Shown here piece by piece: positions 833-30,678 of a stretch of DNA of 64,000 nucleotides. Source of the DNA: an uncultured Clostridium sp. Lineage in GTDB: Bacteria > Bacillota > Clostridia > TANB77 > CAG-508. The translations under genes and the position numbers were made by a program. Under the pieces are notes generated by a model that saw only the letters and a list, made by a program, of their open reading frames with translations, was not told where the DNA came from and made no database searches. The first letter of the stretch is position 1; the number at the start of each line of letters is the position of its first letter. The stretch is from assembly GCA_900553365.1 (NCBI GenBank), contig USDL01000003.1:24258-88257 (forward strand), written 5' to 3'.

Positions 833-1210
833 TTATTTGGACTTTTTTGTTTTTTTATACTCCTTTATAATTGAATATATTTCATATATTGCAATAATGG
901 TAAGGAAAATTCCAAAGCATCTTTTTAAAACTTTTACATTCATTTTTGATGATATATTTGCTCCTATTATGGCTCCTACCACACCACTTATTGCTAATGT
1001 TATTCCTATTTTCCATTCTATTAATTTGGATTTAATTGAAACTATTATTGCAGATATTGATGTTGGCACAAAAAACACTAAATTTGTTGCTTGAGCTACG
1101 TGTTGTTCTACGACTAAAAAAATAGAGAGAACAAGTATTAGTATTGTTCCTCCTCCCATTCCTGTTCCACTTACAGTTCCTGAAATTAATCCAGTTACAA
1201 TTTCCCACAT
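833..1210 (-). CDS. TauE/SafE (DUF81) anion-exporter family, C-terminal 4-TM half (ATG start MWEIVTG...; the ORF-track start at 1228 is a TTG)
   Basis: Contains Gly-rich TM helices (GTVSGTGMGGGT...VVGAIIGANISSK) typical of the second TauE repeat. It lies immediately downstream of the N-terminal half. Confidence 0.6.
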   Translation of the reverse strand: MWEIVTGLISGTVSGTGMGGGTILILVLSIFLVVEQHVAQATNLVFFVPTSISAIIVSIKSKLIEWKIGITLAISGVVGAIIGANISSKMNVKVLKRCFGIFLTIIAIYEIYSIIKEYKKTKKSK

Positions 1211-1220
1211 ATTAATCCTT

Positions 1221-1568
1221 TCACGCAATTATCATTTTTATTGATGTATATGTCAAAAATATTATAAATAAAATTCTTAAAACTTTTGTTGGCATTTTTT
1301 TTAAGAGTTTTGCCCCAATTACTCCTCCTATTATTCCTCCTATTGCACACTTTATTCCTAAATTCCAATCTATATAGTCGTTTTTATAGTAAAATATTCC
1401 GCTTGCTATTACCATTGGAAGTATTGCAAATACTGATGTTGCTCTTGCTTTACTATCTTCTAGTTTAAATAAATGTATTAATGCTGGAACTACTATCATT
1501 CCTCCTCCTGCTGCAAATAATCCGCTTATGACGCCTGCTATTAAGCCTATTGTTATCTTTTTAAACAT
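1221..1568 (-). CDS. TauE/SafE (DUF81) family, N-terminal 4-TM half
   Basis: Translation is MFKKITIGLIAGVISGLFAAGGGMIVVP...GGIIGGVIGAKLLKKMP, the first TauE repeat. The ORF ends at a TGA 13 nt before the ATG of the second half. Confidence 0.6.
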   Translation of the reverse strand: MFKKITIGLIAGVISGLFAAGGGMIVVPALIHLFKLEDSKARATSVFAILPMVIASGIFYYKNDYIDWNLGIKCAIGGIIGGVIGAKLLKKMPTKVLRILFIIFLTYTSIKMIIA

Positions 1569-3001: not shown

Positions 3002-4504
3002 TTATGCATTTGTTATAATTATTCTTCCATTTTTATTTTCTTTTTTTATTTCTTCTGCTCTGTATGTATAAATTCTATATTCGTTTTTACCATCAAATTT
3101 TATTCTTACTGCTTTTGTGTAGTCTGTTTTGTTCATTGGGTGTTTTTCTTCTATTATTAAACTTGCTTTTGTATTTTTTAGTGTTTCAAATGTTGTCATA
3201 AATCCTATTCCGCTTCCTCCTGTTTCTTTATGAGTAGTAATTTGTTCTAGTCCAAGTTTTAATAATGTTGGTATTTCAAATTCTATACCTGTATCATATA
3301 TACGAACTTCATAGTGTTCATCTATTATTCCTAGTATTAGCAATATATTTTTATTTGTATTGTTGCTACTATTTATTGCTATTATTGCGTCTTTTATGTG
3401 GTCACCTAGCATTGTTTCTAGCTTACTTTGCTCTACTATGTTTTCTATCATGTAGTTGATATTTCCATTTATTTTTACATTAAATTTTATATTGATTTTA
3501 GTTGCTTCTTGGTTCATGTATTCTAAAATATTATCTATGCCAAAGATTCCTGTTTTTGGTATTTTGTTTTCTATATTTTTCTCCATTTCCATAGTGTATT
3601 CTTTAGATAGTTTTTGTACTTGTTTTTCAAAATTTAAAAATTCATCTCCAAATTCTACTTTCATGTTTTCTACTATTTCTGGTTTTGACATTACTTTGTT
3701 TGAGAAGCCTTCTAATGCTTTTATTCTATTGCTGTATTTATGATTTATTGTAGCAATTCTTTGATTTTCTTCTAGGATGTTTTTTATTTCTTTGTCCTTT
3801 TCTTTTATTTCGTTTTCTAGTTCTTCTATTGTTTTTTCTTTTAATTTTTGTTTATAGTATTTGGTTATTTTCTGTTTAATCCAAATAAACATGCAGATAG
3901 ATTCAATGACAATGCCTAAAAATAAATATGTACCTGACTGCCATTCACTAGTATTGCTCACTATTGAGTATATTATTATGGTTATTCCAATAAATGCAAA
4001 ACCAATTATTCCTATATTATTTAGCTTTTTATTATCTTTTAAAAATGTTATACCATTCTTAAGCCTTTTAATTCTAAATATTCTATTTATTAATAATATT
4101 TCTACACATATTATTAGCATTAAGGAATAGATTGAATTAATTGGAAAGTCTGGCTCAATAAGCATTAATATAATTGCAACTATAACAACACTAATTGTGT
4201 ATACTAAATATGTAATACTAAAAGATGCTAGTGTTACAATTATAGAATAACTAAATTTATTGTTTGTTATTTTTGATATTACAAAACCATGTATTAAATA
4301 CATAACAATTAAAACTGGTAATACAGGAATATATTGTACAAGAAACACTTCCAAACTCGCTTCTATTATGCTTATTATTAAAATTGCGAGTGTTTTTAGC
4401 TTGTCATTATCTCCATAATCAGTTAGTTTTATAAATATGAAATATGTCAAAATATTTATAAAATCCACTTTTAATACTTTATTTACTATATCTATTATTT
4501 CCAT
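3002..4504 (-). CDS. membrane sensor histidine kinase, AgrC/LytS-like (6-7 TM N-domain, coiled coil, GHKL ATPase)
   Basis: Multi-TM N-terminus. H-box-like RIATINHKYSNRIKALE. C-terminal ATPase with ...HKETGGSGIGFMTTFETL. Probable start is MEIIDIV at 4504, which has an AGAGGGA SD. The track ORF extends to 4558. Confidence 0.7.
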   Translation of the reverse strand: MEIIDIVNKVLKVDFINILTYFIFIKLTDYGDNDKLKTLAILIISIIEASLEVFLVQYIPVLPVLIVMYLIHGFVISKITNNKFSYSIIVTLASFSITYLVYTISVVIVAIILMLIEPDFPINSIYSLMLIICVEILLINRIFRIKRLKNGITFLKDNKKLNNIGIIGFAFIGITIIIYSIVSNTSEWQSGTYLFLGIVIESICMFIWIKQKITKYYKQKLKEKTIEELENEIKEKDKEIKNILEENQRIATINHKYSNRIKALEGFSNKVMSKPEIVENMKVEFGDEFLNFEKQVQKLSKEYTMEMEKNIENKIPKTGIFGIDNILEYMNQEATKINIKFNVKINGNINYMIENIVEQSKLETMLGDHIKDAIIAINSSNNTNKNILLILGIIDEHYEVRIYDTGIEFEIPTLLKLGLEQITTHKETGGSGIGFMTTFETLKNTKASLIIEEKHPMNKTDYTKAVRIKFDGKNEYRIYTYRAEEIKKENKNGRIIITNA

Positions 4505-4593
4505 ATAATCCCTCTGTATTTTATTATATATAAATTGTAAAAAAAAATCAAACCACATATATTAATATGTGATTTGACTATACTATTTATTTT

Positions 4594-4641
4594 TTATACT
4601 CCGCCCCAATATAAGAAAAATTCCATTATTTTTTGCCACAT
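4594..4641 (-). CDS. 15-aa ORF MWQKIMEFFLYWGGV with a perfect SD, in the leader of the kinase gene
   Basis: AAAAGGAGGTGGGAATT-ATG. The ORF ends 90 nt upstream of the kinase start. Too short for the ORF track. Confidence 0.25.
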   Translation of the reverse strand: MWQKIMEFFLYWGGV

Positions 4642-4700
4642 AATTCCCACCTCCTTTTTTAATGAATTTGGTAATTTGCATTTTGTATAATACAAAAATA

Positions 4701-4727
4701 CCACCTAAGCTTGATTTCTTAGGTGGT
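4701..4727 (-). terminator. terminator downstream of the response-regulator gene (minus strand)
   Basis: CCACCTAAG-cttgatttc-CTTAGGTGG 9-bp stem. On the minus strand it is followed by a U-rich run. A weaker second hairpin lies at 4772-4797. Confidence 0.5.
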
Positions 4728-4804
4728 TTGGGGATGGAAAAATTATGCAATGAAATACAAAAAAATAAAAGCTCTAAACTTTTTGTTAGAGTTTTTATTG
4801 TTTT

Positions 4805-5599
4805 CTATAAATATTTTTTAATTTTATCTGCATAGTAATATATAAATTCTGTTGGTGTTGGCACTCCTGTTTGATGATTTATTCTAGCTGTATAATGTGT
4901 CATTAAGTCATCTATTGAGGATATTCTCCATGCATAGTTTATGGCTGTTTGCATCGCTCTGCTTATGCTACTATTACCAACTTTAAATTCGTTTGATAAA
5001 TAGTAAAATACTGAATCGTTGTTTTTTTCATCATTTTCTAATAGATACAAAATTGCATCAAATAAGTATTTTCTACCTTTTAAATGATTTGCTACTCCAA
5101 TTAGATCTAATTCATTGTTTATTTTATCTTTTATTCTGTTTTCATGCTCTATTGGCGTTTCTGTTGTAGTTTTAACTATATTAGTTTGATTATGGTATAT
5201 GGTTTCTCTTAATGAAACCATTGAATTTATTACCATTTCAGGGCTATAATCACTTTGTTTTTTATAAAAGATAAAATCTGTTCCCAAGTCATGAATATGG
5301 TTATACACTATATTTGATGAGACATTTGTAGTAACAACTATTAATGGTCTAAATTCTAATTTAGTTTTCTGCAATTCTTCTAAAAAGCTTATTCCTGAGC
5401 CTTCTCCTTTATGTAATTCTAAATCAAGGATTATTCCTTCTGGGACATACGTTTTTGTGTCCTTGATTCCTTCGTAGCTTGAATTTGTATGCTTTATTAT
5501 TTCTGCATCATTTCTAGTTTTTAAGTATTCTAGAAATTCTTTAACTTCAAGTTCATCATCTTCAATTAATAATATAGACATAGGTTTTTCAGTATTCAT
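4805..5599 (-). CDS. Spo0A-like response regulator paralog (receiver domain plus Spo0A_C-type DNA-binding domain)
   Basis: Receiver MSILLIEDDELEV...IILDLELH...FIFYKK. C-terminal LDLIGVANHLKGRKYLFDAILYLLEND...SRAMQTAINYAWR...PTPTEFIYYYADKI parallels Spo0A HEIGVPAHIKGYLYL...SRVERAIRHAIEVAW...PTNSEFIAMVADKL. SD AAGGAGGT upstream. Confidence 0.75.
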   Translation of the reverse strand: MNTEKPMSILLIEDDELEVKEFLEYLKTRNDAEIIKHTNSSYEGIKDTKTYVPEGIILDLELHKGEGSGISFLEELQKTKLEFRPLIVVTTNVSSNIVYNHIHDLGTDFIFYKKQSDYSPEMVINSMVSLRETIYHNQTNIVKTTTETPIEHENRIKDKINNELDLIGVANHLKGRKYLFDAILYLLENDEKNNDSVFYYLSNEFKVGNSSISRAMQTAINYAWRISSIDDLMTHYTARINHQTGVPTPTEFIYYYADKIKKYL

Positions 5600-5756
5600 A
5601 ATAGTTAATATTACCTCCTTAGTAAAACTTTAGTTTGGTAATCAAACTACCTATTTAATATACCACATTTTTCGGCAAATTTCCACATTTTTTGCATTGT
5701 TTGTTCCACACTTTTTTATTTGATTTTGAAATACACTATTTATGGAGGTTTAAATT

Positions 5757-6083
5757 ATGAAAGAAGAAATTGGAAAAAGAATTACAGAAATAAGAAAAAG
5801 CTTAAATATGAACAAGGAGCAGTTTGCTAAATTAATTGGGTTTAGCGGGCAATTCTTAGGCACTGTTGAATCAGGTGTAAATGGTTTAGCATTAGATAGA
5901 GTAATAGCTATTTGTGAGAAGACAAATACTTCTGCTGATTATCTTCTTTTTGGAAAGAGAACAATATTTGCTGATGATTTAAAGCAAATTTTTGAGAACA
6001 TTGATGAGTCTCAAATTGCTCCCGCTTTTGAAGCATTACAAAATATAGCTTTGTTCATAAAAGAATCTAAAAATTCTGCATAA
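5757..6083 (+). CDS. XRE-family HTH regulator (108 aa)
   Basis: EQFAKLIGFSGQFLGTVESG HTH motif. Divergent from the Spo0A-like gene. Confidence 0.7.
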   Translation: MKEEIGKRITEIRKSLNMNKEQFAKLIGFSGQFLGTVESGVNGLALDRVIAICEKTNTSADYLLFGKRTIFADDLKQIFENIDESQIAPAFEALQNIALFIKESKNSA

Positions 6084-6084
6084 T

Positions 6085-6115
6085 AAAAGATGGCTTTTGC
6101 CATCTTTTATTATTT
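6085..6115. terminator. bidirectional rho-independent terminator
   Basis: AAAAGATGGC-tttt-GCCATCTTTT followed by a T-run. It sits between the XRE stop and the FtsZ-paralog stop. Confidence 0.6.
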
Positions 6116-7062
6116 TACTCAACTCCGGTTGCTATAACAGTTACCTCTGTTTCATCTCCTAATGTTTCATCAATTACTGTTCCAAATAAAATGTTTGCAT
6201 CTGGATCAACCTTATCATTTATTACTTGAATAGCAGTATTAATTTCAATTAATCCTAGGTTTTCTCCTCCTCTTATGTTGAAGATTACACCTTTTGCATT
6301 ATCTATTTTATTTTCAGTTAATGGGTTATCAATAGCCCTTCTAACAGTATCTTCAAGTGGTTCATCATTTCTCTTTTTTGCAATTCCCATGTAGGCTTTT
6401 CCTTTATAACTAAAAATTGTTTGAACATCGGCGAAGTCTATATTAATATCTCCAACAGTTGTAATTAAGTCTGTTATGCTTTGAATACCTTGTTTTAGTG
6501 TATTATCAGCTAGTTCAAAAGCATCTTGTATTGATGTTTTGTCTCCAACTACTTTTAGCAAGTTATCATTCAAAACAACTATTAATGCATTAACATTTTC
6601 TTTTAGCTTTGCAATTCCACTATCTGCTCTAAGTGACCTTTTTCTACCTTCAAAAGTAAATGGTTTAGTAACAATTCCAACAGTTAAAATATTCATAGAT
6701 TTTGCAATTTCTGCAACTACTGGTGCTGCACCTGTTCCAGTTCCTCCTCCCATTCCAGCAGTTAAGAATAACATATCAGTGTTTTGTAAGATTTTTTTAA
6801 TTTCTTCTTTACTTTCAAGAGCTGCTTTTTCTCCTATTACTTCATTTGCACCAGCTCCTAATCCCTTTGTTGTTTCTTTACCAATTTGTAAAACGTTTTT
6901 AGCATTAGCCGTTTTTAGGCAATTAGTTTCTGTATTAAATAAATATGTCTCAATATTTGGAACTTCATCTGCAATCATTCTCATAACTGCATTGTTTCCT
7001 CCTCCTCCAACACCAATTACTTTTATTTTTGCTATTGCTTCTGTATTTTTTACATTATTCAT
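6115..7062 (-). CDS. FtsZ paralog: tubulin/FtsZ GTPase core only (315 aa), no C-terminal linker or tail
   Basis: KVIGVGGGGNNAV...AGMGGGTGTGAAPVVAEIAK (G-box). NIDFADV matches the T7 loop. Collinear with B. subtilis FtsZ up to ...VTVIATG, then a stop and a terminator. Confidence 0.85.
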   Translation of the reverse strand: MNNVKNTEAIAKIKVIGVGGGGNNAVMRMIADEVPNIETYLFNTETNCLKTANAKNVLQIGKETTKGLGAGANEVIGEKAALESKEEIKKILQNTDMLFLTAGMGGGTGTGAAPVVAEIAKSMNILTVGIVTKPFTFEGRKRSLRADSGIAKLKENVNALIVVLNDNLLKVVGDKTSIQDAFELADNTLKQGIQSITDLITTVGDINIDFADVQTIFSYKGKAYMGIAKKRNDEPLEDTVRRAIDNPLTENKIDNAKGVIFNIRGGENLGLIEINTAIQVINDKVDPDANILFGTVIDETLGDETEVTVIATGVE

Positions 7063-7228: not shown

Positions 7229-8707
7229 TTATAGTATTATACAAATTAGTCCGCCGCTGCCTTCATTTACTATTCTTTCTAGGGTTTCTTGTAGTTTTCC
7301 TTGTGCCTCTTCTGGCATTCTGTATAGTTTGTTTTGTAGTCCTTCATTAACTAATTCATGTAAATTCTTTCCAAATATATTTGATTCCCAAATTTTCTTT
7401 GGATCATTTTCAAATTCAGATAGTAAGTAATTTACTAGTTCTTCTGATTGTTTTTCGCTTCCTACTATTGGTGATACCTCTGTTTCTATGTCTGCTCTAA
7501 TTAGATGTATTGATGGTGCACGAGCTTTTAGTTTTACTCCAAATCTTGAGCCTTGTTTTACTATTTCAGGTTCATCAAGGATTAATTCTTCCATACTTGG
7601 CATCACTATTCCATATCCCTTTTGTCTTACTTCTTGCAATGCCATTGATACTTTATCATATTCTTTTTTTACATTTGCTAAGTTTTCCATAGTAGTAAAT
7701 AAATCTGCTTCATTTTTTATTTCTATTCCTGTAATTTCAGTAAGTATTTTATAGAATAAATTATTATTTAATGTTATTTCTATTGAAACTGAGCCTGTGC
7801 CTAAATCTATCTTATCTATTGTTGTTTTTACAATAATTTCTGTTTGCTTTATTCTTGATATACCAGTATTTATTGTTTTTATAGTTGTTATATCTTTAAA
7901 TGCGTCTTTTATTTCTTTAAATAATTCTTGTTTTAGTTCATGTTCATAATTTAAGCCATCTATCCATCCTGGGAAGTTAATATTTATTCTTTCTACTGGG
8001 AACTCATATAATATTCTTCCAAAAATGTTATTTATATCATCTGTACTTAAATTTGTGCAATCTGTTGGTATTACTGAAACGTTGTATTTTTCTTCTAACT
8101 CTTTTGCTAAATTTTGTGTTTCATCACTATGAGGATTATTTGTGTTAAGTACAATTACAAATGGTTTGTTTAATGCCTTTAGCTCACTTACAACTCTTGA
8201 TTCTGCCTCTACATAATCTTCTCTTGGAATTTCTGTTATGCTTCCATCTGTAGTTACTAATATTCCTATTGTTGAGTGTTCTGTAATAACTTTTCTTGTG
8301 CCTATTTCTGCCGCTTCTTCAAATGGAATTTCTTCATCTGACCATGGAGTTTTTACCATTCTCGGTACATCTTCTTCCATATACCCAATAGCATTGTTTA
8401 CTAAATAACCTACACAGTCAACCAATCTTGTTTTTAAATTTAAGTTGTCTCCTATTGTTATTTCAATAGCTTCATTAGGCACAAATTTGGGTTCTGTGGT
8501 CATTATTGTTCTTCCCGCAGCACTCTGTGGAAGTTCATCTCTTGCTCTTTCTCTTTTATAGCTGTTTTCTATGTTTGGAATAACTAATAAATCCATGAAA
8601 TTTTTTATAAATGTAGATTTTCCTGTTCTTACTGGTCCTACTACTCCAACATATATATCCCCATCTGTCCTTGCCCTAATGTCCTCATATACTCCTATAT
8701 TCTCCAT
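7229..8707 (-). CDS. spoIVA: stage IV sporulation protein A (spore coat morphogenetic ATPase)
   Basis: N-terminus MENIGVYEDIRARTDGDIYVGVVGPVRTGKSTFIKNFMDLLVIPNIE carries the SpoIVA Walker A. 492 aa. GGAGG SD. Confidence 0.9.
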   Translation of the reverse strand: MENIGVYEDIRARTDGDIYVGVVGPVRTGKSTFIKNFMDLLVIPNIENSYKRERARDELPQSAAGRTIMTTEPKFVPNEAIEITIGDNLNLKTRLVDCVGYLVNNAIGYMEEDVPRMVKTPWSDEEIPFEEAAEIGTRKVITEHSTIGILVTTDGSITEIPREDYVEAESRVVSELKALNKPFVIVLNTNNPHSDETQNLAKELEEKYNVSVIPTDCTNLSTDDINNIFGRILYEFPVERININFPGWIDGLNYEHELKQELFKEIKDAFKDITTIKTINTGISRIKQTEIIVKTTIDKIDLGTGSVSIEITLNNNLFYKILTEITGIEIKNEADLFTTMENLANVKKEYDKVSMALQEVRQKGYGIVMPSMEELILDEPEIVKQGSRFGVKLKARAPSIHLIRADIETEVSPIVGSEKQSEELVNYLLSEFENDPKKIWESNIFGKNLHELVNEGLQNKLYRMPEEAQGKLQETLERIVNEGSGGLICIIL

Positions 8708-8825
8708 AAAAATAATTACCTCCCATAACTTAAACGTTTGTACTAAACTTTAATTAATGTATATTAGGGGTAGGTAATTATTATTACTATTTTTTTGAAT
8801 TTTTTTATATGATTTTTCGAAATGA

Positions 8826-8975
8826 TTAATTATCTTTTTTATTTCTTGTTGCTTGTTCTATTTTTTCTACTTGCTCTTTTTGTTTTTCTATTGGAAGCCA
8901 ATGATATGTGGAGCATACAAATTCTCCATATTTTGTTGTATCTTCTTTTTTGTGTTCTTTTTTATCTTTTTGCAT
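8826..8975 (-). CDS. hypothetical small protein (49 aa) downstream of lexA
   Basis: Translation is MQKDKKEHKKEDTTKYGEFVCSTYHWLPIEKQKEQVEKIEQATRNKKDN. SD AAGAGGTG lies 6 nt upstream. Confidence 0.3.
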   Translation of the reverse strand: MQKDKKEHKKEDTTKYGEFVCSTYHWLPIEKQKEQVEKIEQATRNKKDN

Positions 8976-9044
8976 ACAAACACCTCTTTTTAGTAGTATT
9001 TGTTTTTTTATTTATTATATGCAAAAAGTGGAACTAAATATATC

Positions 9045-9704
9045 TTATAATTTTCTAAATACACCAGCAACTTTGCCTAGAATTTTGCAGTCTGGAACTA
9101 TTATTGGATCCATTGTATGATTTTCTGGTTGTAAACGTATGTGGTCTTTTTCTTTATAGAATGTTTTTACTGTTGCTTCATCTCCTATTAATGCAACAAC
9201 TATTTCTCCATTCATTGCTATATCTTGTTTTTTAACTAGTATATAATCTCCATCTAATATTCCTGCTTCTATCATACTTTCGCCTCTTACTGTAAGCATA
9301 AAGCTTTCGCTATTACCTATAAAATCTATTGGAATTGGGAATGTATCTGTTATGTTTTCTACTGCTAAAATTGGTGCTCCTGCTGTTATTTTTCCTATAA
9401 CTGGAACATCTACAAGTTCTTTTCCACTATATGCTGGTTTTTCTTCGAATTTTTCTTGTCCTTCTAATCCACCTTTTAATAGTTTTAGTGTTCTTCCTTT
9501 TTGGTCTTCTTTTTTAATATATCCTTTTTTCTGTAATCCTGTTATATATGTATGTACTGTAGCTGTTGAACTTAACCCTACTGCTTTTCCTATTTCCCTA
9601 ACTGATGGTGGGTATCCATTTTCTTTGATAGACTTTTCTATGTATTTTAATATTGCTTTTTCTCTTTTATTTAATTCATTTGGATCTTTTCTTCTCATCT
9701 GCAA
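9045..9704 (-). CDS. lexA: LexA repressor (S24 peptidase)
   Basis: N-terminal winged HTH (GYPPSVREIGKAVGLSSTATVHTY). Ala-Gly cleavage region (KITAGAPI). Ser/Lys dyad regions (RGESM...KTFYK). Confidence 0.9.
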   Translation of the reverse strand: MQMRRKDPNELNKREKAILKYIEKSIKENGYPPSVREIGKAVGLSSTATVHTYITGLQKKGYIKKEDQKGRTLKLLKGGLEGQEKFEEKPAYSGKELVDVPVIGKITAGAPILAVENITDTFPIPIDFIGNSESFMLTVRGESMIEAGILDGDYILVKKQDIAMNGEIVVALIGDEATVKTFYKEKDHIRLQPENHTMDPIIVPDCKILGKVAGVFRKL

Positions 9705-14483: not shown

Positions 14484-15737
14484 CTAGTCTATTTGACTTC
14501 CCTTTTGCACTTTATCTCCTGATTGTGTTGCTATTACATTATCTATAATTCCTGTTGCACTTGATGTGTAATTAACTATTAGTGGATTATTGCTGTTTTG
14601 TGCTGTTCCATTGAATGTTCCTTTATATGTTGTGATTTTTGTTGAGTCAAAGGTTAGTGCTATAGTTCCTTCCAAAACTTCACATGAGTTGAACATGTAT
14701 TGAATATTAGTAACATTTTTCATGTTCCATCCATCAATATTTAGAGTTTTCAGACTTCTACAGCCATTAAACAATTGTAGCATATTTTCTACATTGCTAA
14801 CATCCCATTTATGTAAGTCAAGTGTTTCTAGTTTTTTACAATGTCTAAACATTCTTTCCATTGTAGTTACATTACTTACATCTAAATTCTCTATTCCTAT
14901 TATTCGTTTTAAATTCATAACATTGGGAATTGTTGCATCATCCCCAGAACCAAAAGCCCAAGTCATATTTTGCATACTACTTGTATCCCAATTACTTATA
15001 TCTAGTGTTTCAAGATTTGCACATCCATAAAAAATGCTTTGCATGTCGATTACTTTTGATGTATTAAAATTCCTCAAATCTAGTTGTTTAAGATTACTAC
15101 AATTTGAAAACATCCATCCCATATCTGTTACATTTTCTGTATTAAAATATGAAAAGTTAATTGTTTTCAAATTATTGCAATCATAAAACATTCCTTTCAT
15201 GTTTGTCATGTTACATATATTTAAATTTTTAATTCCTTCAATTGTACTTATATTAGTTAAATTCTTAAATAAATAATTACCACCCTTTGGTGCTACTTTA
15301 TCTTCTATTATTACCGAGGTAATTTTTTGTGCAAATTCATCATCATTAATCCATGGCATTAATGTTGCTGCTTCTGAAAGTTTTAAATTAGATATATCTG
15401 AAATATCTACAGTTTTTTGTACTAAACTTGCTCCATTTCTTGTTTCTAAAATATGTGTACTATCTGCATAAAATACAAGTGCACCATCAGAATATAATGC
15501 TGCATATAAAGGTGTGGGGTCCATTCTATTATTAACAAGATCATCAATTAATTTGTCTAATTCATTTATTGTTTCATTTTCCTTTTGTGTTTCCTCATTC
15601 CAAGCTTTTACTGCTTTGTCAGCTGTTCTAATTATATCCGAATTAATTACTACATTAACACTAACACCTACCAATATAAGCATAATGATTATGGTAATAA
15701 TTAGTGCAATTAATGTTATTCCATTTTGTTTTCTCAT
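14484..15737 (-). CDS. BspA-type leucine-rich-repeat (DUF285-like) surface protein with a prepilin-like N-terminus
   Basis: N-terminus MRKQNGITLIALIITIIIMLILVGVSV is nearly identical to that of the pilin at 33627-33878. C-terminal repeats NL.T..FSNCSNLK.LDLRNF.TS.V are BspA/DUF285-type LRRs. Confidence 0.75.
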   Translation of the reverse strand: MRKQNGITLIALIITIIIMLILVGVSVNVVINSDIIRTADKAVKAWNEETQKENETINELDKLIDDLVNNRMDPTPLYAALYSDGALVFYADSTHILETRNGASLVQKTVDISDISNLKLSEAATLMPWINDDEFAQKITSVIIEDKVAPKGGNYLFKNLTNISTIEGIKNLNICNMTNMKGMFYDCNNLKTINFSYFNTENVTDMGWMFSNCSNLKQLDLRNFNTSKVIDMQSIFYGCANLETLDISNWDTSSMQNMTWAFGSGDDATIPNVMNLKRIIGIENLDVSNVTTMERMFRHCKKLETLDLHKWDVSNVENMLQLFNGCRSLKTLNIDGWNMKNVTNIQYMFNSCEVLEGTIALTFDSTKITTYKGTFNGTAQNSNNPLIVNYTSSATGIIDNVIATQSGDKVQKGSQID

Positions 15738-24257: not shown

Positions 24258-26252
24258 TTAAGGAATGTTTATTGTTGTTTGTGCATTTAAGTTTAAGTCT
24301 TTTCTTGCTTTTACAGTTCCATCTATCTTAACTGTAATTCTTACTGTTCCTTCTCCATCAAAGCCTACTGTAACATTGGTTAAGTCTTCACTAACATCCT
24401 TTGATTCTACTTGTACATCATCTACTAAAACTACCAATTTTACTTTGCTTGGCTGATTTGCTAAAACTTCTTTTTCTACTTCCTTTTCTTCTCCTGTTTC
24501 TGGATCTTTTATTTTTTCTTTAATTTTCTTATATGTTGGTTCATATCCTGTAAGGCTTGCAACATTAATATTTATTGTTCCATGTACCATTGCTTGATAT
24601 TCATTTATTGTTATTGTTATTTCTGAGTTTTTACTTACCATACTTTTTGCTGATATGTTTTGACCTACTACTCCATTGCCTTTACTTGAGTCTTTTATTT
24701 TATCGGTTCTTATCCATTTTAGCTTTGCTTCTGCAATTTTTGCTTTTGCTTCATCTTCTGAAAGTCCTTTTAAATCTGGTACTTCTACTTGTTCTATTCC
24801 TAAACTTGCTTTTACTTTTACTTTGCTTCCTACTAGAATTTCTTCTCCTTCTTGTTTATCTTGTTCAATTATTATTCCTGCTTCAACTTCATCACTATAT
24901 TCTTCTTCTAGTTCCATTTCTAAGCCTAATTCTTTTAATTCTTTTCTTGCTTCATCCTTTGTTTTGCCTACTAATTTTGTAACTTTTACAAGTTCTTGAC
25001 CTTTGCTTATTATAACATTTATTGTGCTTCCCTCTTTTACTGTAAATGCAAAATTTTCTTGGTATTTTGGGTCTTGTGATATTATTTTTCCTTCTGGAAC
25101 TTCTGGATCATATTTTTCTTCTTGAATTTTTACTGTAATTTTTGATTCTGCAACTTTTGCTTTTGCCTCATCAAATGTTAAGCCTACAAGCTTTGGTAAT
25201 GCAACATCTTTTGGTTGTTTTGAGTTAAGAACTCCTAGTGTTATAGCTATTGTTGAAATAAATACTATTAAAAATATAATTCCAATTAATGCTGCTTTTA
25301 CAAATTTATGCTCTTCTAAAAATCTATTAAATTTTGCAAATTTTCCTTCTTTTGCTCTTTTGGCAGTTCCAGTTCCTTCTTTCTTGCTTGGTTCTGTATC
25401 TTCTGCAACTCTAGATACTCCAATTTCTGGATTTTTTATGATTCTATCTAAATCTTCAATCATTTCTGTTGCTGAACTGTATCTTTGATTTGGATCTTTT
25501 TGCATTGCTTTCATGATTAAGTTATTTAAACTTTGTGGAATAGCTGGATTTAGAACTATTGGTTCTATTGGTTTTTCTTGCATGTGTTTTAATGCTACTG
25601 ATACTGGTGTATCAGCATCAAAAGGTACTCTTCCTGTTACCATTTCATATAGCACAACTCCTAGAGAATAAAGGTCTGATTTTGCATCTGTATATCCTCC
25701 ACGTGCATGTTCTGGTGAGAAATAGTGTACTGAACCTATTGTTGTTCCAAAGGCTGTGATTGTTGAGTTTGATACTGCTTTTGCAATTCCAAAATCAGTT
25801 ACTTTTGCTGTTCCATCTTCTGTTATTATTATATTATGTGGTTTTATATCTCTATGAATTATGTTGTTTTTATGTGCTGTTTCTAGGGCCTGAGCTATTT
25901 GTTTTGCTATTTTTACAGACCATTTCCAGCCCATTCTTCCATCTTCAACAATTATTTCTTTTAGAGTTTTGCCTTTTATTAATTCCATTACAATATAATA
26001 TAAACTACCTTCTTTGCCAACATCATAAACTGATACAATATTAGGATGTGTAAGGCTTGCTGCTGATTCTGCCTCTGTATTAAATCTTTTTATGAATTCA
26101 TTATCTGTTGTATATTCTTCTCTTAAAACTTTTACTGCTACATATCTTTTTAATACTAAATCTCTAGCCTTATATACTGTTGCCATTCCTCCGCTTCCTA
26201 TTTTTTCTATAAGTTCATATCTACTTCCAAGTACTTTCCCTTCTACATTCAT
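24258..26252 (-). CDS. prkC: Ser/Thr protein kinase with TM segment and PASTA repeats (PrkC)
   Basis: Kinase motifs GSGGMATVYKA...HRDIKPHNI...DFGIA. TM segment. C-terminal PASTA-like repeats. Confidence 0.9.
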   Translation of the reverse strand: MNVEGKVLGSRYELIEKIGSGGMATVYKARDLVLKRYVAVKVLREEYTTDNEFIKRFNTEAESAASLTHPNIVSVYDVGKEGSLYYIVMELIKGKTLKEIIVEDGRMGWKWSVKIAKQIAQALETAHKNNIIHRDIKPHNIIITEDGTAKVTDFGIAKAVSNSTITAFGTTIGSVHYFSPEHARGGYTDAKSDLYSLGVVLYEMVTGRVPFDADTPVSVALKHMQEKPIEPIVLNPAIPQSLNNLIMKAMQKDPNQRYSSATEMIEDLDRIIKNPEIGVSRVAEDTEPSKKEGTGTAKRAKEGKFAKFNRFLEEHKFVKAALIGIIFLIVFISTIAITLGVLNSKQPKDVALPKLVGLTFDEAKAKVAESKITVKIQEEKYDPEVPEGKIISQDPKYQENFAFTVKEGSTINVIISKGQELVKVTKLVGKTKDEARKELKELGLEMELEEEYSDEVEAGIIIEQDKQEGEEILVGSKVKVKASLGIEQVEVPDLKGLSEDEAKAKIAEAKLKWIRTDKIKDSSKGNGVVGQNISAKSMVSKNSEITITINEYQAMVHGTININVASLTGYEPTYKKIKEKIKDPETGEEKEVEKEVLANQPSKVKLVVLVDDVQVESKDVSEDLTNVTVGFDGEGTVRITVKIDGTVKARKDLNLNAQTTINIP

Positions 26253-28175: not shown

Positions 28176-29522
28176 TTAGGTATATTTGTCTAACATCCAG
28201 CCACCCATGTATACTTGAATTAATGGTACTATAACTACTAAAACTACAAATATTAAAACCAATCCTACAAATATTTGTACTATTTGTGGTAATACTTTTA
28301 TTACTTTTTGTATTATATTGTCTATATCTATTTGCATATAGCTATTTAATTTTTCCATCATTTCAGTTAGGTCTGTTTGCATACCTATTTTTAGCATTTC
28401 TGTTATCATTGGTGTTGATAATCCTGATTTTTCGAATGGTTCTATCCAGCTTTGACCTATTAATATGTTATTTATTGCTGATTCAATTAATGATAACATA
28501 ACTGAATTGTTTGTAATATTTCTACTAGTTTCCAAAGCTTCCTGTATTCTTAATCCATTTTTTAAGTTTAATAATATTGATTGAACTAGTCTTGAAAAAT
28601 CTATTGCATATATTAGCTTACCAAATATAGGCATTGTATATTTAAAATAGTGATATTTATATTTTCCTTGTGGAGTCCTTATATAAGCTATGATTGAAAC
28701 CACTATTGCTGCTATAATTACAACTGGTATATACCATATTTTTGCTACTGCATTTATTAAATTTGAAAACCACAATGTTAATGCAGGCAATTTGGCATCT
28801 GAACCAAAACTCTTAAATACATTTTGAATCATTGGTACTGATATAATTGTTCCTACTACTGCCAAAACCATTAATACTACGAATTGTACCAAGTTTGGTA
28901 TTAATATTTCCCTTAGCTTTTTATTCATTGCTTCTGTATCTTCAAGGTATTTTACTGCTTGCTCTAATGCATTTGTAAGCGAACCTGATAATTCACCTAC
29001 TTTAATCATATTTATGTATATTGGAGGAAATATAGAGCTATAGTACTCCATTGTTGTATACATGTTTTCTCCTGCTTCTACTCCAAGCAATATATCCTCT
29101 ACTATTATTCTAAGTGTTTGGTTTTCTATTGTTTCTATAACTGTTGTTAAAGCATGTATGTTATTAAAATTTGCTTTTTTCAAAAGATAAAAGTTTTCTG
29201 TAAATACCAATATGTCTCTCTTTTTTATAGCTTTATGCTTTTGCATAGTGTCTTTCATTCTTCTAAACCAGTTATCTTTTTTGTTCATACTTTTTTCAAT
29301 TTGTTCTGCTCTAACTTGTTTTAAAACACTATTATTTGCTTCAATGTTTCTTTTTTGCTTATTAATATTTTTATTAGCTTTAACATTAATTGATACCACG
29401 GAAATTGGATACAAGTCATTATTTTTTAACTTCTTCAATAAGGCATATTTATTTGGTGCATCTATTCTGTTTTCTACAACATCTCCTGCCTTTGTTGCGG
29501 CTCTATACTTGTATATAGGCAT
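28176..29522 (-). CDS. pilC: type IV pilus inner-membrane platform protein PilC (GspF family)
   Basis: 448 aa. Polytopic with two T2SSF-type repeats. Last gene of the pilus operon. Confidence 0.85.
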   Translation of the reverse strand: MPIYKYRAATKAGDVVENRIDAPNKYALLKKLKNNDLYPISVVSINVKANKNINKQKRNIEANNSVLKQVRAEQIEKSMNKKDNWFRRMKDTMQKHKAIKKRDILVFTENFYLLKKANFNNIHALTTVIETIENQTLRIIVEDILLGVEAGENMYTTMEYYSSIFPPIYINMIKVGELSGSLTNALEQAVKYLEDTEAMNKKLREILIPNLVQFVVLMVLAVVGTIISVPMIQNVFKSFGSDAKLPALTLWFSNLINAVAKIWYIPVVIIAAIVVSIIAYIRTPQGKYKYHYFKYTMPIFGKLIYAIDFSRLVQSILLNLKNGLRIQEALETSRNITNNSVMLSLIESAINNILIGQSWIEPFEKSGLSTPMITEMLKIGMQTDLTEMMEKLNSYMQIDIDNIIQKVIKVLPQIVQIFVGLVLIFVVLVVIVPLIQVYMGGWMLDKYT

Positions 29523-29550
29523 ATATTTTCCCTCCGTTCTAATGAATACT

Positions 29551-30648
29551 TTATTGCATCATTTTCATTTTCATTTGCATAATTGTTCTATTAAGAATTT
29601 CTATATTTTTTTCTTCTAGTTGTGATTTTGCTTGCTCTAATGTGATTTTATTTTTAACATATAATTCAGCTAGTGAATTTATTAAACTTACATTTCCTTT
29701 TCCTAAACTGCTTTGTATTGCATCTTCTAGTTCAGATACGCTAAATTTTTCTTTTCTTATACATCCAGCTACTACATTATCTACCACCATAACTTCTGGC
29801 AATAGTACCAACTTTCCATCTACTCCTCTTAATAGTCTTTGTGATACTATTAGTTTTAATAATGAAGCTATTAAGTACTTAACTGAGCCTTGGTCTCTTA
29901 TCTCATAGAAGTTTATTATTCTGTCTATTGTTTCTGCACATGATTTAGTATGTAAAGTTCCCAATACTAAATGACCAGATTCTGCCATGTCAATAGCTGC
30001 TTCCATTGTTTCTTTGTCTCTAATCTCTCCTATAATTAGTATATCACAGTCTTCTCTTAACGCATTTTTTACACCGTCTCTATAAGTTATTACGTCTTTA
30101 CCAATTCCAACCTCTTTTTGTACTATTAATGATTTTTGTGAAGTATGTTTAAATTCTATAGGTTTTTCTAGAGAAAGGATTTTTTTGTTTTCATTTTGAT
30201 TTATTTCATTTATTAATGCATTAAGTGTTGTTGTTTTACCAGAGTTTGTTTTTCCTGTTACTAATATTAATCCTTGTGGTTGATACATCATTCTTCTAAC
30301 TACATCTGGAATTCCAAGTTCTGAAAATTGTGGTAATGTATTTTTAATTAATCTAAGTGTTGCAACAGGAATATCATCTGAAGAAGATATATTTCCTCTA
30401 AATCTTACTCCTTCATATTCATAAGAAAAATCTAGTTTTTTAGTTTTACTATATTCTTCATCTTTTTGTATATTTCCTCGTACGAAATAATCGTACATTT
30501 CATCCATATCTTCTGCATCTAATATTTCTTCATCTTCTATTTCATTTAATTCTCTTGCTACTCTAAGCATTGGTCTTTTTCCTGCAACTAAATGTATATC
30601 TGATGCATTTTTTTCTATTGCTTCTTGAAAAATTTTGTTTATATTCAT
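29551..30648 (-). CDS. pilT: type IV pilus retraction ATPase PilT
   Basis: 365 aa. Walker A GKTNSGKTTTL. Asp box. GTLHT His-box. Confidence 0.85.
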   Translation of the reverse strand: MNINKIFQEAIEKNASDIHLVAGKRPMLRVARELNEIEDEEILDAEDMDEMYDYFVRGNIQKDEEYSKTKKLDFSYEYEGVRFRGNISSSDDIPVATLRLIKNTLPQFSELGIPDVVRRMMYQPQGLILVTGKTNSGKTTTLNALINEINQNENKKILSLEKPIEFKHTSQKSLIVQKEVGIGKDVITYRDGVKNALREDCDILIIGEIRDKETMEAAIDMAESGHLVLGTLHTKSCAETIDRIINFYEIRDQGSVKYLIASLLKLIVSQRLLRGVDGKLVLLPEVMVVDNVVAGCIRKEKFSVSELEDAIQSSLGKGNVSLINSLAELYVKNKITLEQAKSQLEEKNIEILNRTIMQMKMKMMQ

Positions 30649-30678
30649 ATTATTCTTCTCCTCATCAGTATTTTAAAC

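Follow-up and report, generated by a model that had tools for sequence, protein, structure and literature searches.

Many uncultured gut Clostridia carry a cassette of four parts, namely a divergent XRE regulator, a response regulator with a Spo0A_C output domain, a leaderless peptide and a 7-TM kinase, and we consider it fairly probable that this cassette is a self-contained two-component system of the peptide quorum-sensing type, diversified into pherotypes. The copy analyzed here lies in a stretch of 64,000 nucleotides (hereafter, the window) from an uncultured Clostridium sp. A sequence-only reading of the window had flagged the kinase and the Spo0A-like regulator, whose open reading frames are indeed found where it placed them, as an orphan-looking module of two genes. 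However, a gene of 15 codons located between them had been overlooked, and the pair belongs to the larger cassette. The label of orphan must also be dropped: the regulator family contains 300 clusters (50% identity) at E ≤ 1e-30, and searches with the kinase returned 1,994 and 2,483 proteins. On the other hand, the peptide gene and a mosaic of pherotypes now lend support to the guess that the pair might serve as a “quorum checkpoint”, and the cassette is apparently undescribed, as had been suspected: no description was found in the literature searched.

Gene neighborhoods were compared among 81 loci (80 GTDB-representative loci, one per assembly and all different, plus the window). The only conserved neighbors detected were the XRE gene (62 loci), the regulator gene (66) and the kinase gene (81). 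In about 66 loci, the regulator gene directly precedes the kinase gene on the same strand, which upholds the view that this polytopic membrane kinase is a dedicated partner. Six loci lack an adjacent regulator, so another partner for the kinase is possible; some lineages have lost the regulator and retain the peptide and the kinase. At least 80 genomes at the species level, all from uncultured gut Clostridia, contain the cassette, as do thousands of protein clusters from metagenomes; all its carriers are uncultured MAGs. Among the 81 loci, genes for an exporter, a protease or a modification enzyme are not conserved beside the cassette, nor are genes for immunity or an ABC transporter near it, and no AgrB or AgrD-like gene belongs to its conserved neighborhood. 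Close relatives were not found in the phage, plasmid and IMG/VR collections searched, and the cassette is not mobile. The proposed link to spoIVA and a second FtsZ gene did not hold, as these genes adjoin the cassette in only 7–13 of the 81 loci; their proximity is incidental, and it is the XRE, regulator, peptide and kinase genes that travel together.

The XRE-family protein (108 aa; 5757 to 6083, plus strand) matches Pfam HTH_3 with 32 bits. Its gene is found upstream of the regulator gene and divergent from it, and searches against PDB and PADLOC yielded nothing beyond generic HTH matches. The protein is identical among pherotypes I–III and therefore cannot be a determinant of specificity.

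The peptide mini-gene (4594 to 4641, minus strand) occupies the region between the regulator and kinase genes, and encodes the Trp-rich 15-aa peptide MWQKIMEFFLYWGGV, here called pherotype I. A perfect Shine-Dalgarno sequence (GGAGGTG; 4648 to 4654, minus strand) is found 6 nt ahead of the ATG, and the gene has its own terminator. When mini-ORFs were defined by a Shine-Dalgarno sequence plus ATG, a length of 13–20 aa and at least two Trp residues, one was found upstream of the kinase gene in 69 of 74 related loci and in none of 276 control intergenic regions. Family peptides were detected in 78 loci and comprise 76 distinct sequences, with the consensus M-D-W-[WFY]-[DE]-x-[FL]-x-[EK]-[WY]-[LI]-x-[YK]-W-[LG]-G. 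Trp makes up 19.7% of their residues, compared with 0.37% in neighboring proteins, and positions other than Trp are also conserved: an acidic residue, hydrophobic residues in helical register, and a Y/K-W-G motif. Close pairs of peptide genes show 4 synonymous changes versus 1 non-synonymous change. The helical hydrophobic moment is 0.484 versus 0.246 for shuffled sequences, about 18 SD above the mean of the shuffled set, and the charge is near-neutral or acidic (mean −0.28, range −4 to +3). Altogether, these features identify the mini-ORF as a real gene, judging from its sequence conservation. As the peptide carries neither a signal nor a leader sequence, and no exporter or processing gene is linked to it, its secretion is purely something that we infer.

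The sensor kinase (500 aa; 3002 to 4504, minus strand) has no database name. According to gene callers and to all homologues it starts at Met19 (4504) of an ORF that itself extends to 4558; the ATG at 4558 falls within the terminator/promoter region. Because no match was found in Pfam or NCBIfam, including the HATPase_c_5 model suggested by the sequence-only reading, its nature was established by other means. The family profile matches the CA domain of KinB (E 1.3e-5), 39 of 63 family members match HATPase_c, and profile and fold searches identify the 7-TM protein as a diverged histidine kinase. Its layout consists of a 7-TM sensor (residues 1–210), a DHp coiled coil and a diverged GHKL ATP-binding domain. 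The AlphaFold model displays seven transmembrane helices with almost no extracellular loops, and a sensor that is joined directly to the coiled coil. An invariant H255 occupies the place of the phospho-acceptor histidine in the helical DHp domain, and the Bergerat-fold CA domain preserves the G1 box (DxGxG) as D404-x-G406 and the G2 box (GxGxG) as G430-x-G432-x-G434. In histidine kinases, the Asn of the N box coordinates Mg2+-ATP. Alignment with KinB places Asp at both N-box positions (D368, invariant, and D372, in at least 90% of members), a replacement owing to which catalytic activity is not guaranteed; Asp departs from the consensus and could still bind Mg2+.

The kinase had been described as AgrC-like with 6–7 TM helices. 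Seven helices and a histidine kinase were confirmed, while an AgrC/LytS-type affiliation was not. Membership of the AgrC/HPK10 group was rejected because PF14501 (HATPase_c_5) gives no match and the structure is no nearer to AgrC than to generic kinases; the context speaks against it too, as the 7-TM sensor is accompanied by a Spo0A_C partner. A LytS-type kinase was likewise rejected, as the Pfam marks 5TMR-LYT and His_kinase (PF06580) are absent.

Comparison of strains revealed a hypervariable block (3900 to 4641, minus strand) that unites the coding sequence and terminator of the peptide with the promoter and the membrane-domain region of the kinase gene. At the nucleotide level, strains are 45–70% identical in this block, compared with 99.5–100% in its flanks. 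In the species of the window, four alleles of the peptide are combined with four of the TM domain, and the peptide follows the TM group without exception. Among the seven loci from this species, the regulator is 98–100% identical and the cytoplasmic half of the kinase 95.5–100%, while TM-domain identity is 38–47% between pherotype groups (74% for I versus II) and 90–99% within a group. Between pherotypes I and II, differences are confined to the C-terminus of the peptide and, in the kinase, to the first ~100 residues. Pherotype IV is found on two different cytoplasmic backgrounds of the kinase, and is also present in a sister species, whose TM domain is 73.7% identical to that of pherotype IV versus 42–46% to the others. 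The mosaic is repeated in a distant lineage with only ~34% kinase identity, where the TM domain is 57.5% identical, the cytoplasmic domain 99.6% and the regulator 98.1%, and the peptides end in KWWG versus KWWV. Family-wide, the correlation between peptide and TM domain, controlled for the cytoplasmic domain, is modest (rho 0.25), and this test does not discriminate because the reciprocal control (0.19) is also significant. The peptide gene is linked to a membrane kinase and a regulator, and peptide and sensor alleles diversify together while the signaling domains are conserved, as in pheromone systems.

The absence of linked export or processing genes and of a leader admits another explanation, which we consider unlikely: the peptide might be a non-secreted micropeptide that inserts from the cytoplasm into the inner leaflet and tunes the kinase of its own cell, as MgrB and SafA do with PhoQ. 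On this view, the cassette would amount to an ordinary two-component system for sensing a stimulus, to which a small protein is added as accessory subunit. A strongly amphipathic, near-neutral helix would fit binding at the membrane interface, and a kinase with hardly any extracellular loops would suit this explanation as well. However, no diversifying pressure on an internal subunit is obvious, and yet at least four deeply diverged peptide/TM alleles are found in a single species; these alleles are shuffled onto other backgrounds and shared across species, which is so far typical of secreted pheromone/receptor pairs. Furthermore, a separate, strongly translated and terminated transcription unit suggests production in high copy number.

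One would also expect peptide and sensor to co-vary if the peptide were a leaderless, membrane-active bacteriocin or toxin, sensed by the kinase and the regulator to control its production or immunity as NisK senses nisin. Short, Trp-rich amphipathic peptides are often membrane-active, and leaderless bacteriocins exist (for a review, see PMC6131525). The near-neutral or acidic charge of the family peptides, their length of just 13–20 aa and the lack of a conserved immunity or ABC transporter gene nearby make this possibility very improbable, however.

The regulator (264 aa; 4805 to 5599, minus strand) contains a receiver and a Spo0A_C DNA-binding domain. The effector domain recognized in the sequence-only reading is genuine: the Pfam Spo0A_C profile (PF08769) matches along positions 1–104 of 104 with 61.5 bits (E 8.8e-17; gathering score, 25 bits), and in phmmer searches residues 160–261 align end to end with the Spo0A DNA-binding structures 1LQ1 (E 1.3e-7) and 1FC3 (E 2.7e-6). 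The Response_reg score (29.9 bits) is slightly below the cut-off of 30.2. Residues E13, D14, D59, T91 and K113 of the receiver are invariant in 24 family members, and the regulator is thus predicted to be phospho-competent. Its score against the Spo0A equivalog of NCBIfam, TIGR02875, is only 93.1 bits (aligned over 4–256 of 262), and the equivalog cut-off is 200 bits; therefore, the regulator is classified by profile as a Spo0A_C-type protein that is not Spo0A, as the sequence-only reading had maintained.

Divergence of the recognition helix was also correctly noticed, although the alignment offered for it is out of register with the HMMER pairing, which sets S210-S-I-S-R214-A-M-Q217-T-A-I-N-Y-A-W224 of the regulator against S210-R-V-E-R214-A-I-R217-H-A-I-E-V-A-W224 of Bsu Spo0A. 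The near-invariant Spo0A helix, S-R-V-E-R-A-I-R-H-A-I-E-V-A-W, is replaced in the family by the signature S-[TS]-I-[ST]-[RN]-[AG]-[MI]-Q-[NT]-A-I-x-[HY]-A-W. R211 has changed to T/S, E213 to S/T, R217 to Q and H218 to N/T, while the scaffold (I212, A219, I220, A223 and W224, with R214 in 41 of 63 members) is kept.

The regulator shares with Spo0A a full-length receiver plus Spo0A_C architecture, and could be imagined as a very divergent true Spo0A, the only one of its lineage, with the peptide and the kinase gating the initiation of sporulation. The organism harbors a full-length spoIVA equivalog (774.8 bits) near the cassette and therefore probably sporulates and needs Spo0A; in Clostridia, kinases phosphorylate Spo0A directly (PMC11210211); and the boxes at the regulator promoter resemble 0A boxes. 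Neither the window nor 1.3 Mb of related loci yielded a canonical spo0A gene, an absence that is uninformative because this is a small sample of these genomes. We hold this interpretation to be most improbable. Besides the low score of the regulator itself, all ten family representatives sampled score 60.6–100.4 bits against TIGR02875, identity to the C-domain of Bsu Spo0A is 25–33% (the second Spo0A of C. thermocellum still reaches 49% to Bsu Spo0A), the four recognition-helix residues mentioned above are all replaced, and the regulator has been lost in lineages that keep the peptide and the kinase. Unlike Spo0A, moreover, the regulator has a dedicated adjacent kinase and a peptide, and does not lie beside spoIVB. 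Spo0A_C domains are not essentially confined to Spo0A, as had been assumed: published work includes Spo0A paralogues, phage copies that lack the receiver, and an enrichment of PF08769 in mobile elements of the gut. No kinase or peptide partner has been reported for the published paralogues (Galperin 2022; C. thermocellum Clo1313_0637).

A search for 0A-box-like motifs, which the sequence-only reading had advised, detected direct repeats at the promoter of the regulator gene (5657 to 5710, minus strand). On this strand, the boxes read from the sequence are TGTGGAA (5704 to 5710), TGTGGAA (5681 to 5687), TGCCGAA (5671 to 5677) and a TGTGGTA that lies over the extended −10 TGTGGTATATT (5657 to 5667). 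A neutral scan described the promoter as TGGAAA-17-TATATT with an upstream TG. The boxes are conserved among eight species, with TGTCGAA in loci L011 and L012, and a TGT[AG]GAAA box lies over the −35 at a fixed position in 60 loci, with the T conserved in 91%. The density of TGT[AG]GAA is 4.14/kb versus 0.25/kb in control DNA. This promoter is the sole tandem-box match in the window, where it is not statistically significant by itself, and the overlap with the −35 position implies that the box may in part be an ordinary −35 element. The arrangement of TGTnGAA direct repeats with ~10-bp spacing over the −35 recalls that of 0A boxes at Spo0A-activated promoters.

Two hairpins separate the regulator and peptide genes. 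Directly after the stop codon of the regulator gene, a terminator-like hairpin, AAAAACTCTAAC-aaaaa-GTTTAGAGCTTTT plus a T-run (4759 to 4796, minus strand), was read from the sequence in the species of the window and occurs in some relatives; it was not called by the scan because the rule demands at least three G-C pairs. The second, a conserved stem-loop with a T-run (ACCACCTAAG-N8-CTTAGGTGGT; 4690 to 4727, minus strand), was called as a terminator, is maintained by compensatory changes in eight species and appears in the centroid RNA fold (z = −4.8). GTGG[AT]A motifs reach 4.27/kb in its region versus 0.68/kb in control DNA, and boxes are thus conserved and enriched 5′ of the peptide gene as well as at the regulator promoter. 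The stem-loop may be a terminator, an operator or both, and TGTATTATA, located 3′ of it, is a possible −10 of the peptide gene. After the peptide gene come an intrinsic terminator with a 15-bp stem and T9 (4537 to 4579, minus strand), found by scan and by RNA fold, and a separate sigma-70-type promoter of the kinase gene, TTGATT-17-TATAAT (4523 to 4551, minus strand; 10 of 12 positions matched), in which TATATAAT is conserved across species.

The succession of a 13–20-codon ORF with 2–5 Trp codons, an intrinsic terminator and the kinase gene recalls a trpL-like attenuator, in which charged tRNA-Trp would set ribosome-mediated read-through into the kinase gene, but this is hardly credible: conservation extends to non-Trp positions of the peptide, each pherotype allele has a wholly different hairpin as terminator and no conserved anti-terminator was found, the centroid fold contains two terminators only, the conserved TATAAT promoter of the kinase lies 3′ of the terminator, the spacing between stop codon and terminator is variable (with an extra 140 nt in locus L091), and co-variation of the TM domain would find no rationale.

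If the cassette is a peptide quorum-sensing system, a short, terminated transcript of the mini-gene would be translated with the help of a very strong ribosome binding site. The peptide would then leave the cell by an unlinked route and partition into the outer leaflet of the membrane, inside which it would be recognized by the 7-helix bundle of the kinase, whose alleles co-vary with it. Autophosphorylation of the kinase on H255 would be followed by transfer of the phosphate to D59 of the regulator, and the phosphorylated regulator would bind direct repeats akin to the 0A box and distinct from it. Such repeats overlap the −35 of the regulator's own promoter and related motifs are found 5′ of the peptide gene, an arrangement that would thus give autoinduction. 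Possession of several peptide/sensor alleles by one species would give rise to pherotypes that are private to one another, as known from agr and comQXP.

On comparison, the logic of the cassette appears to be like that of agr and comQXP, with every part drawn from a different family and without a linked processing gene. Unlike agr, the cassette lacks AgrB and includes a divergent XRE gene; its peptide is 13–20 aa long, with neither leader nor tail and without a conserved Cys/Ser for a thiolactone ring; and the output domain of its regulator is Spo0A_C instead of LytTR, with a kinase that does not match HATPase_c_5. As in ComQXPA (see PMC4008528), polymorphism covers the putative pheromone gene together with the membrane domain at the N-terminus of a multi-spanning kinase, the kinase C-terminus and the regulator are conserved, and Trp is central to the pheromone. 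The cassette differs in its gene order (regulator-peptide-kinase), in the lack of a ComQ prenyltransferase gene, in a peptide that is far shorter than pre-ComX and apparently unprocessed, and in a regulator that is of Spo0A_C type, not of NarL/ComA type. Very short hydrophobic or aromatic peptides from unannotated mini-ORFs beside a regulator, together with a divergently encoded XRE-type HTH protein, are reminiscent of Rgg/SHP and ComR/ComS (XIP), and ComS-type peptides contain a double-Trp motif. In those systems, however, the peptide is taken up again and binds a cytoplasmic receptor of the RRNPP type (HTH plus TPR, ~300 aa), whereas the XRE protein of the cassette is much smaller and invariant between pherotypes, and the partner that co-varies is the membrane kinase. 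With ComCDE and BlpCHR the cassette would share an unmodified linear peptide pheromone, a polytopic kinase and allelic pherotypes; the double-glycine leaders, dedicated ABC exporters and LytTR regulators of those systems are all missing.

A wider proposal is that the cassette represents a new class of Gram-positive signaling, in which an unprocessed, leaderless, Trp-rich amphipathic 13–20-mer is read in the membrane by a new family of 7-TM kinases, with output through a Spo0A-fold factor on 0A-like repeats, and in which “dialects” specific to strains gate a Spo0A-related developmental or lifestyle program of abundant uncultured gut Clostridia, with possible cross-talk to the sporulation regulon. 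We offer it tentatively, as an idea that is doubtful rather than probable.

What is understood of peptide quorum sensing in Firmicutes comes from few systems, namely agr, com, blp, fsr and the RRNPP family. The cassette shares the evolutionary logic of pherotypes with known systems, yet three of its component families are invisible to current annotation, as the kinase has no Pfam match, the 15-codon gene is below gene-calling thresholds, and the regulator is misread as Spo0A or CitB. With the cassette, the sensing of a leaderless peptide inside the membrane could be tested directly. If our interpretation is true, it would provide a function for unexplained Spo0A paralogues, the first dedicated kinase/ligand pair of any Spo0A_C regulator, and natural orthogonal peptide/receptor pairs usable in synthetic biology; it would also reveal social discrimination at the strain level within a poorly known part of the gut microbiota.

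The 300-bp gap between the regulator gene (window 4805-5599, minus strand, 264 aa) and the kinase gene holds a short gene that the sequence-only reading had missed. On the same strand, AAAGGAGGTG is followed six bases on by ATG TGG CAA ... TAA, an open frame (4641-4594, minus strand) whose product is MWQKIMEFFLYWGGV. A 13-20-codon ORF with a Shine-Dalgarno sequence and a related product lies in essentially every regulator-kinase gap of the species loci (examples from other loci are MWEWLMKTLSYWCG, MSFWEWIRYIMGI, MDWFDALMEWLGYWLS and MDWWDELMEWIRKWWG), and 76 distinct peptides were found across 78 loci. Their consensus is M-D-W-[WFY]-[DE]-x-[FL]-x-[EK]-[WY]-[LI]-x-[YK]-W-[LG]-G, and Trp makes up 19.7% of their residues, compared with 0.37% in neighbouring proteins. 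When mini-ORFs were defined by a Shine-Dalgarno sequence, an ATG start, a length of 13-20 aa and at least two Trp, 69 of 74 kinase-upstream regions contained one. The same definition gave only six matches in 282 other intergenic regions of these loci; all six are family peptides missed by the exclusion rule, so that the true background is 0/276. Synonymous changes predominate between close peptide pairs (for example, 4 synonymous against 1 non-synonymous), a substitution pattern that shows the mini-ORF to be under coding constraint.

Together with the regulator, the kinase and a divergently transcribed HTH gene of XRE type, the peptide gene makes up a cassette whose best-supported reading is that of a pherotype-diversified peptide-signalling two-component system, which we consider probable. 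The peptides are near-neutral (mean charge -0.28) and, modelled as helices, strongly amphipathic: their hydrophobic moment is 0.484, and that of shuffles 0.246. A non-secreted membrane micropeptide that acts as a subunit of the kinase is an unlikely account of the gene, and a self-inducing membrane-active peptide is a decidedly improbable one. The decisive evidence for the peptide-signalling reading is the co-diversification of peptide and sensor. Kinase homologues at 75-89% identity are the same as the window protein past approximately residue 200 and strongly different before it, and the chromosomal context of their contigs is unchanged: spoIVA, the ftsZ-like gene, the XRE gene, the regulator gene and the downstream deacetylase gene are 99.5-100% identical in nucleotide sequence. 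One block, which runs from within the peptide coding sequence to 300-600 nt into the kinase gene, is only 45-70% identical. The putative peptide promoter and the Shine-Dalgarno sequence lie outside this block and are identical, and the kinase gene is 100% identical beyond it.

Seven loci sort into four groups of peptide and transmembrane (TM) domain alleles, or pherotypes: I, the window (MWQKIMEFFLYWGGV); II, loci L087 and L096 (MWQKIMEFFLYWGGWH); III, L089 and L095 (MW[E/D]YILKILQYWGGF); and IV, L091 and L094 (MLSWLEELLRYWGRWN). Regulators are 98-100% identical both within and between groups, and the cytoplasmic halves of the kinases are 95.5-100% identical, again within and between groups. 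In contrast, TM domains are 90-99% identical within groups and 38-47% between them (74% for I versus II). Between pherotypes I and II, the only differences are at the C-terminus of the peptide and in the first ~100 residues of the kinase, which suggests that TM1-3 reads the C-terminal end of the peptide. Kinase variation spans TM1-TM5 and all predicted outer loops; TM7 is conserved, as is the inner loop 143-160, which is positively charged. Pherotype IV is found on two different cytoplasmic backgrounds, an indication of recombination. A sister species carries a peptide near-identical to that of pherotype IV and a TM domain 74% identical to the pherotype IV one; its cytoplasmic domain is 86-87% identical to that of all strains. 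The mosaic is repeated in a lineage whose kinase is only ~34% identical to that of the window: there, TM domains are 57.5% identical, cytoplasmic halves 99.6% and regulators 98.1%, and the peptides end in ...KWWG versus ...KWWV. A family-wide partial Mantel test of peptide against TM domain was significant in both directions and hence not discriminating. In these alignments, peptide and sensor are shown to co-vary allele for allele, with recombination and trans-species sharing. Mosaics of this kind are the known hallmark of agrBDC, comQXP and comCD/blpCH. After the peptide gene and before the kinase promoter, the pherotype IV loci L091 (3775-4000) and L092 have ~140 nt of extra, fairly G+C-rich DNA (…GAGTTGGCGGGGCGTGAATG…), which neither the other pherotypes nor the sister-species allele in L093 possess.

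The kinase gene (3002-4558, minus strand) encodes 518 aa as an open frame; gene callers and all homologues place the start at Met19 (window 4504, 500 aa), and the upstream ATG at 4558 falls within a terminator and promoter. Neither Pfam nor NCBIfam yields a significant match to the 518-aa ORF. Searches with the kinase yielded 1,994 and 2,483 proteins, none of them named, and in a collection of 5.8 billion proteins no homologue has a Pfam domain or a name. Alignment of 63 homologues (31-61% identity) leaves a small invariant set, namely H255 in a long helix, D368, D404-x-G406 and G430-x-G432-x-G434, with D372 present in at least 90%; these are the residues expected of a histidine kinase. The family profile matches the ATP-binding domain of the sporulation kinase KinB (3D36, E 1.3e-5), and Pfam HATPase_c is reached by 39 of the 63 members when each is searched singly. 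With 50 sequences as input, the AlphaFold model (mean pLDDT 77.6, ~80-85 in the catalytic domain) predicts seven transmembrane helices together with an unbroken coiled coil and an alpha/beta domain; it supersedes a model from 26 similar sequences, with a catalytic domain pLDDT below 50, that preceded the addition of a distant subfamily. Foldseek retrieved 92 PDB matches at E<=0.001, and the top 50 are all DHp/CA structures of histidine kinases. The conserved residues, the KinB and HATPase_c matches and the fold matches identify the product as a diverged histidine kinase, and establish its fold and catalytic residues. Throughout the family, aspartates (D368 and D372) take the place of the two asparagines that classical histidine kinases have in the N box (LGDHIKDAIIAI versus LLNVMKNAIEAM in KinB), which, as read from the alignment, makes for an unusual Mg-ATP site.

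The claim that the regulator carries a Spo0A_C domain without being Spo0A is borne out. The Pfam model matches over its full length (positions 1-104 of 104; E 8.8e-17, 61.5 bits, gathering score 25), and residues 160-261 align by phmmer with two Spo0A DNA-binding domains of known structure, 1LQ1 and 1FC3. On the curated NCBI Spo0A equivalog the protein scores 93.1 bits against a cut-off of 200; hence, the Spo0A_C domain of this response regulator is genuine, and the protein as a whole is not Spo0A. Response_reg gives 29.9 bits, slightly below the 30.2 cut-off. Receiver residues E13, D14, D59, T91 and K113 are invariant among 24 family members and, because of this, the regulator looks phospho-competent; its fold and catalytic residues are likewise established. 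The recognition-helix alignment offered from sequence alone was out of register with the HMMER alignment. Both the latter and an alignment of 63 family regulators give the helix as S-[TS]-I-[ST]-[RN]-[AG]-[MI]-Q-[NT]-A-I-x-[HY]-A-W, corresponding to S210-R-V-E-R-A-I-R-H-A-I-E-V-A-W224 of B. subtilis, with R211, E213, R217 and H218 consistently changed and the buried scaffold positions retained. The 1LQ1 work reportedly identified which Spo0A residues touch DNA. A profile search of 1.84 billion representative proteins gave 300 regulator clusters at E<=1e-30, a number that rises to 1,230 at E<=1e-10. On the Spo0A equivalog, each of ten representatives sampled between 388 and 186 bits scores 60-100 bits. 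Judged by these scores, the family is large, discrete and distinct from Spo0A. No canonical spo0A occurs in the window or in 1.3 Mb of loci, an uninformative result as these are parts of genomes. A canonical Spo0A is likely to exist elsewhere in the genome because the organism carries a full-length spoIVA (774.8 bits, in the window). That the regulator is itself the sole, highly divergent Spo0A of the organism seems very improbable.

In a window of ~28% G+C, the regulator promoter (5657-5710, minus strand) consists of direct repeats at ~10-bp spacing that abut an extended -10, with the form ...ATGCA-AAAAA-TGT[GA]GAA-att-TG[TC]nGAA-aaa-TGTGGTATA[TG]T in eight species; in two of them the middle repeat is the canonical 0A box TGTCGAA. 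Across 60 loci anchored on the -10, the position of a TGT[AG]GAAA box over the -35 is constant, and its T is conserved in 91%. The density of TGT[AG]GAA is 4.14/kb in regulator promoters compared with 0.25/kb in control intergenic DNA, and GTGG[AT]A is enriched 5-6-fold in these promoters and between the regulator and peptide genes. A tandem-box search in 10-nt register found the regulator promoter as the sole match in the 64-kb window, and thus no further targets. These elements fit autoregulation by a Spo0A-fold protein of altered specificity but do no more than suggest it: the box overlaps the -35 site, and the tandem box is not significant alone. Between the regulator and peptide genes, a stem-loop (CCACCTAAG...CTTAGGTGG) is preserved by compensatory changes. 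A neutral scan detected intrinsic terminators just before (4727-4700, minus strand) and just after the peptide gene (4579-4546, minus strand; 15-bp stem and T9), as well as a separate kinase promoter (TTGATT-17-TATAAT), and the centroid RNA fold is dominated by two hairpins flanking the peptide gene (z = -4.8). Rfam found no RNA family anywhere in the window; hence, a riboswitch or known sRNA does not explain the intergenic structures. A Trp-codon attenuator of the trpL kind was also considered and rejected; its likelihood is very low.

The kinase alignment, used to scan a single genome of each GTDB species, gave 80 loci, each from a different assembly. All belong to gut MAGs of uncultured organisms labelled 'Clostridium sp.' or 'Clostridia bacterium', Clostridium sp. 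CAG:452 among them. Wherever upstream sequence is present, a Spo0A_C regulator directly precedes the kinase (~66 loci). When all ORFs within 8 kb of the kinase were clustered for 81 loci, only three families proved conserved: the kinase (81 of 81), the regulator (66) and the divergently transcribed XRE-type HTH protein of 108-120 aa (62). Both the gene structure and the conservation of the cassette are established. No exporter, protease or modification enzyme is among the conserved neighbours within this distance. Every other neighbour occurs in at most 13 loci (deacetylase 12, lexA 8, spoIVA 7), and the sporulation and division context is therefore specific to the window species and its close relatives. 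The proposed functional tie to spoIVA and FtsZ must be rejected since synteny is not kept, spoIVA lying near the kinase in 7 of 81 loci.

Six loci lack the adjacent regulator (L066, L074, L077, L082, L083 and L086; kinase at ~7700-9400 in each). Four are XRE-peptide-kinase and two peptide-kinase only, and all retain a family peptide with a strong Shine-Dalgarno sequence; the kinase must have its partner elsewhere in those genomes. In three loci of a distant lineage (L085, L097 and L098), a divergently transcribed gene for a 400-aa HD-domain protein replaces XRE upstream of the regulator. In locus L064 (2224-7460), ~5.2 kb are inserted between the regulator and the peptide-kinase pair; the insert contains duplicated genes whose products combine (His-Thr)n repeats with N-termini like those of type IV pilins (KGITLIALVITIIVLLILAGVAIAMLSG).

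A mobile-element origin was discarded: phage and plasmid matches are only distant and Spo0A-type (20-28% identity), with none in IMG/VR. A defence-system reading was likewise set aside, as PADLOC shows generic HTH and receiver similarity only. A collection of human faecal 'Bacteriophage sp.' records (H1-H8, e.g., MT835781.1:4687-5451) encodes Spo0A-like proteins that cover 86-98% of the regulator, receiver included, at 21-28% identity. The phage spo0A homologues of a published survey, by its account, have no receiver. The records may thus represent phage copies of full length or else bacterial DNA that was binned wrongly.

Other features of the window can be summarized as follows. The FtsZ gene (6115-7062, minus strand; 315 aa, 358.9 bits against an ftsZ equivalog cut-off of 295.2) lies between spoIVA and the XRE gene, outside the conserved neighbour families, and its product stops directly past the FtsZ_C domain, without the usual C-terminal linker and tail. 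A TauE/SafE-type permease (833-1568, minus strand) is split into two adjacent half-size ORFs (115 and 125-131 aa), as it is in the same-species loci for which the downstream flank was fetched. Also present are a PARCEL-repeat surface protein (14484-15737, minus strand; 159 bits), a PASTA Ser/Thr kinase (24258-26252), a type IV pilus gene set with a PilB-like ATPase and a PilC/GspF-like platform (28176-32307, minus strand) and a polysaccharide biosynthesis cluster (~42-57 kb).

If the cassette is a peptide-signalling system, the peptide would be exported by an unlinked route and bound within the 7-TM bundle, in the outer leaflet. Phosphate would then pass from H255 of the kinase to D59 of the regulator; autoinduction might proceed via the 0A-like boxes, and XRE may act as a repressor or gatekeeper.

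Spo0A paralogues have been reported as two copies in ten Clostridiales genomes and three in Anaerostipes hadrus (10.1101/2022.02.25.481979), and C. thermocellum has a second Spo0A whose role is unknown (PMC4890492). Receiver-less spo0A copies occur in gut phages (PMC10294663), PF08769 is enriched among gut mobile elements (10.1101/214213), and the small proteins linked to AgrB that Sberro et al. describe belong to another system. In our literature search, no account emerged of a Spo0A_C regulator that has a kinase and a peptide of its own. The observation of an AgrC-like kinase paired with a Spo0A-like paralogue holds with corrections, and its interpretation is supported in part; what is present is more interesting than that description. 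The cassette follows the same evolutionary logic as agr and comQXP but is built from different protein families. Altogether, this cassette of four parts, which seems not to have been described before and which annotation does not see, occurs widely among uncultured Clostridia of the gut.
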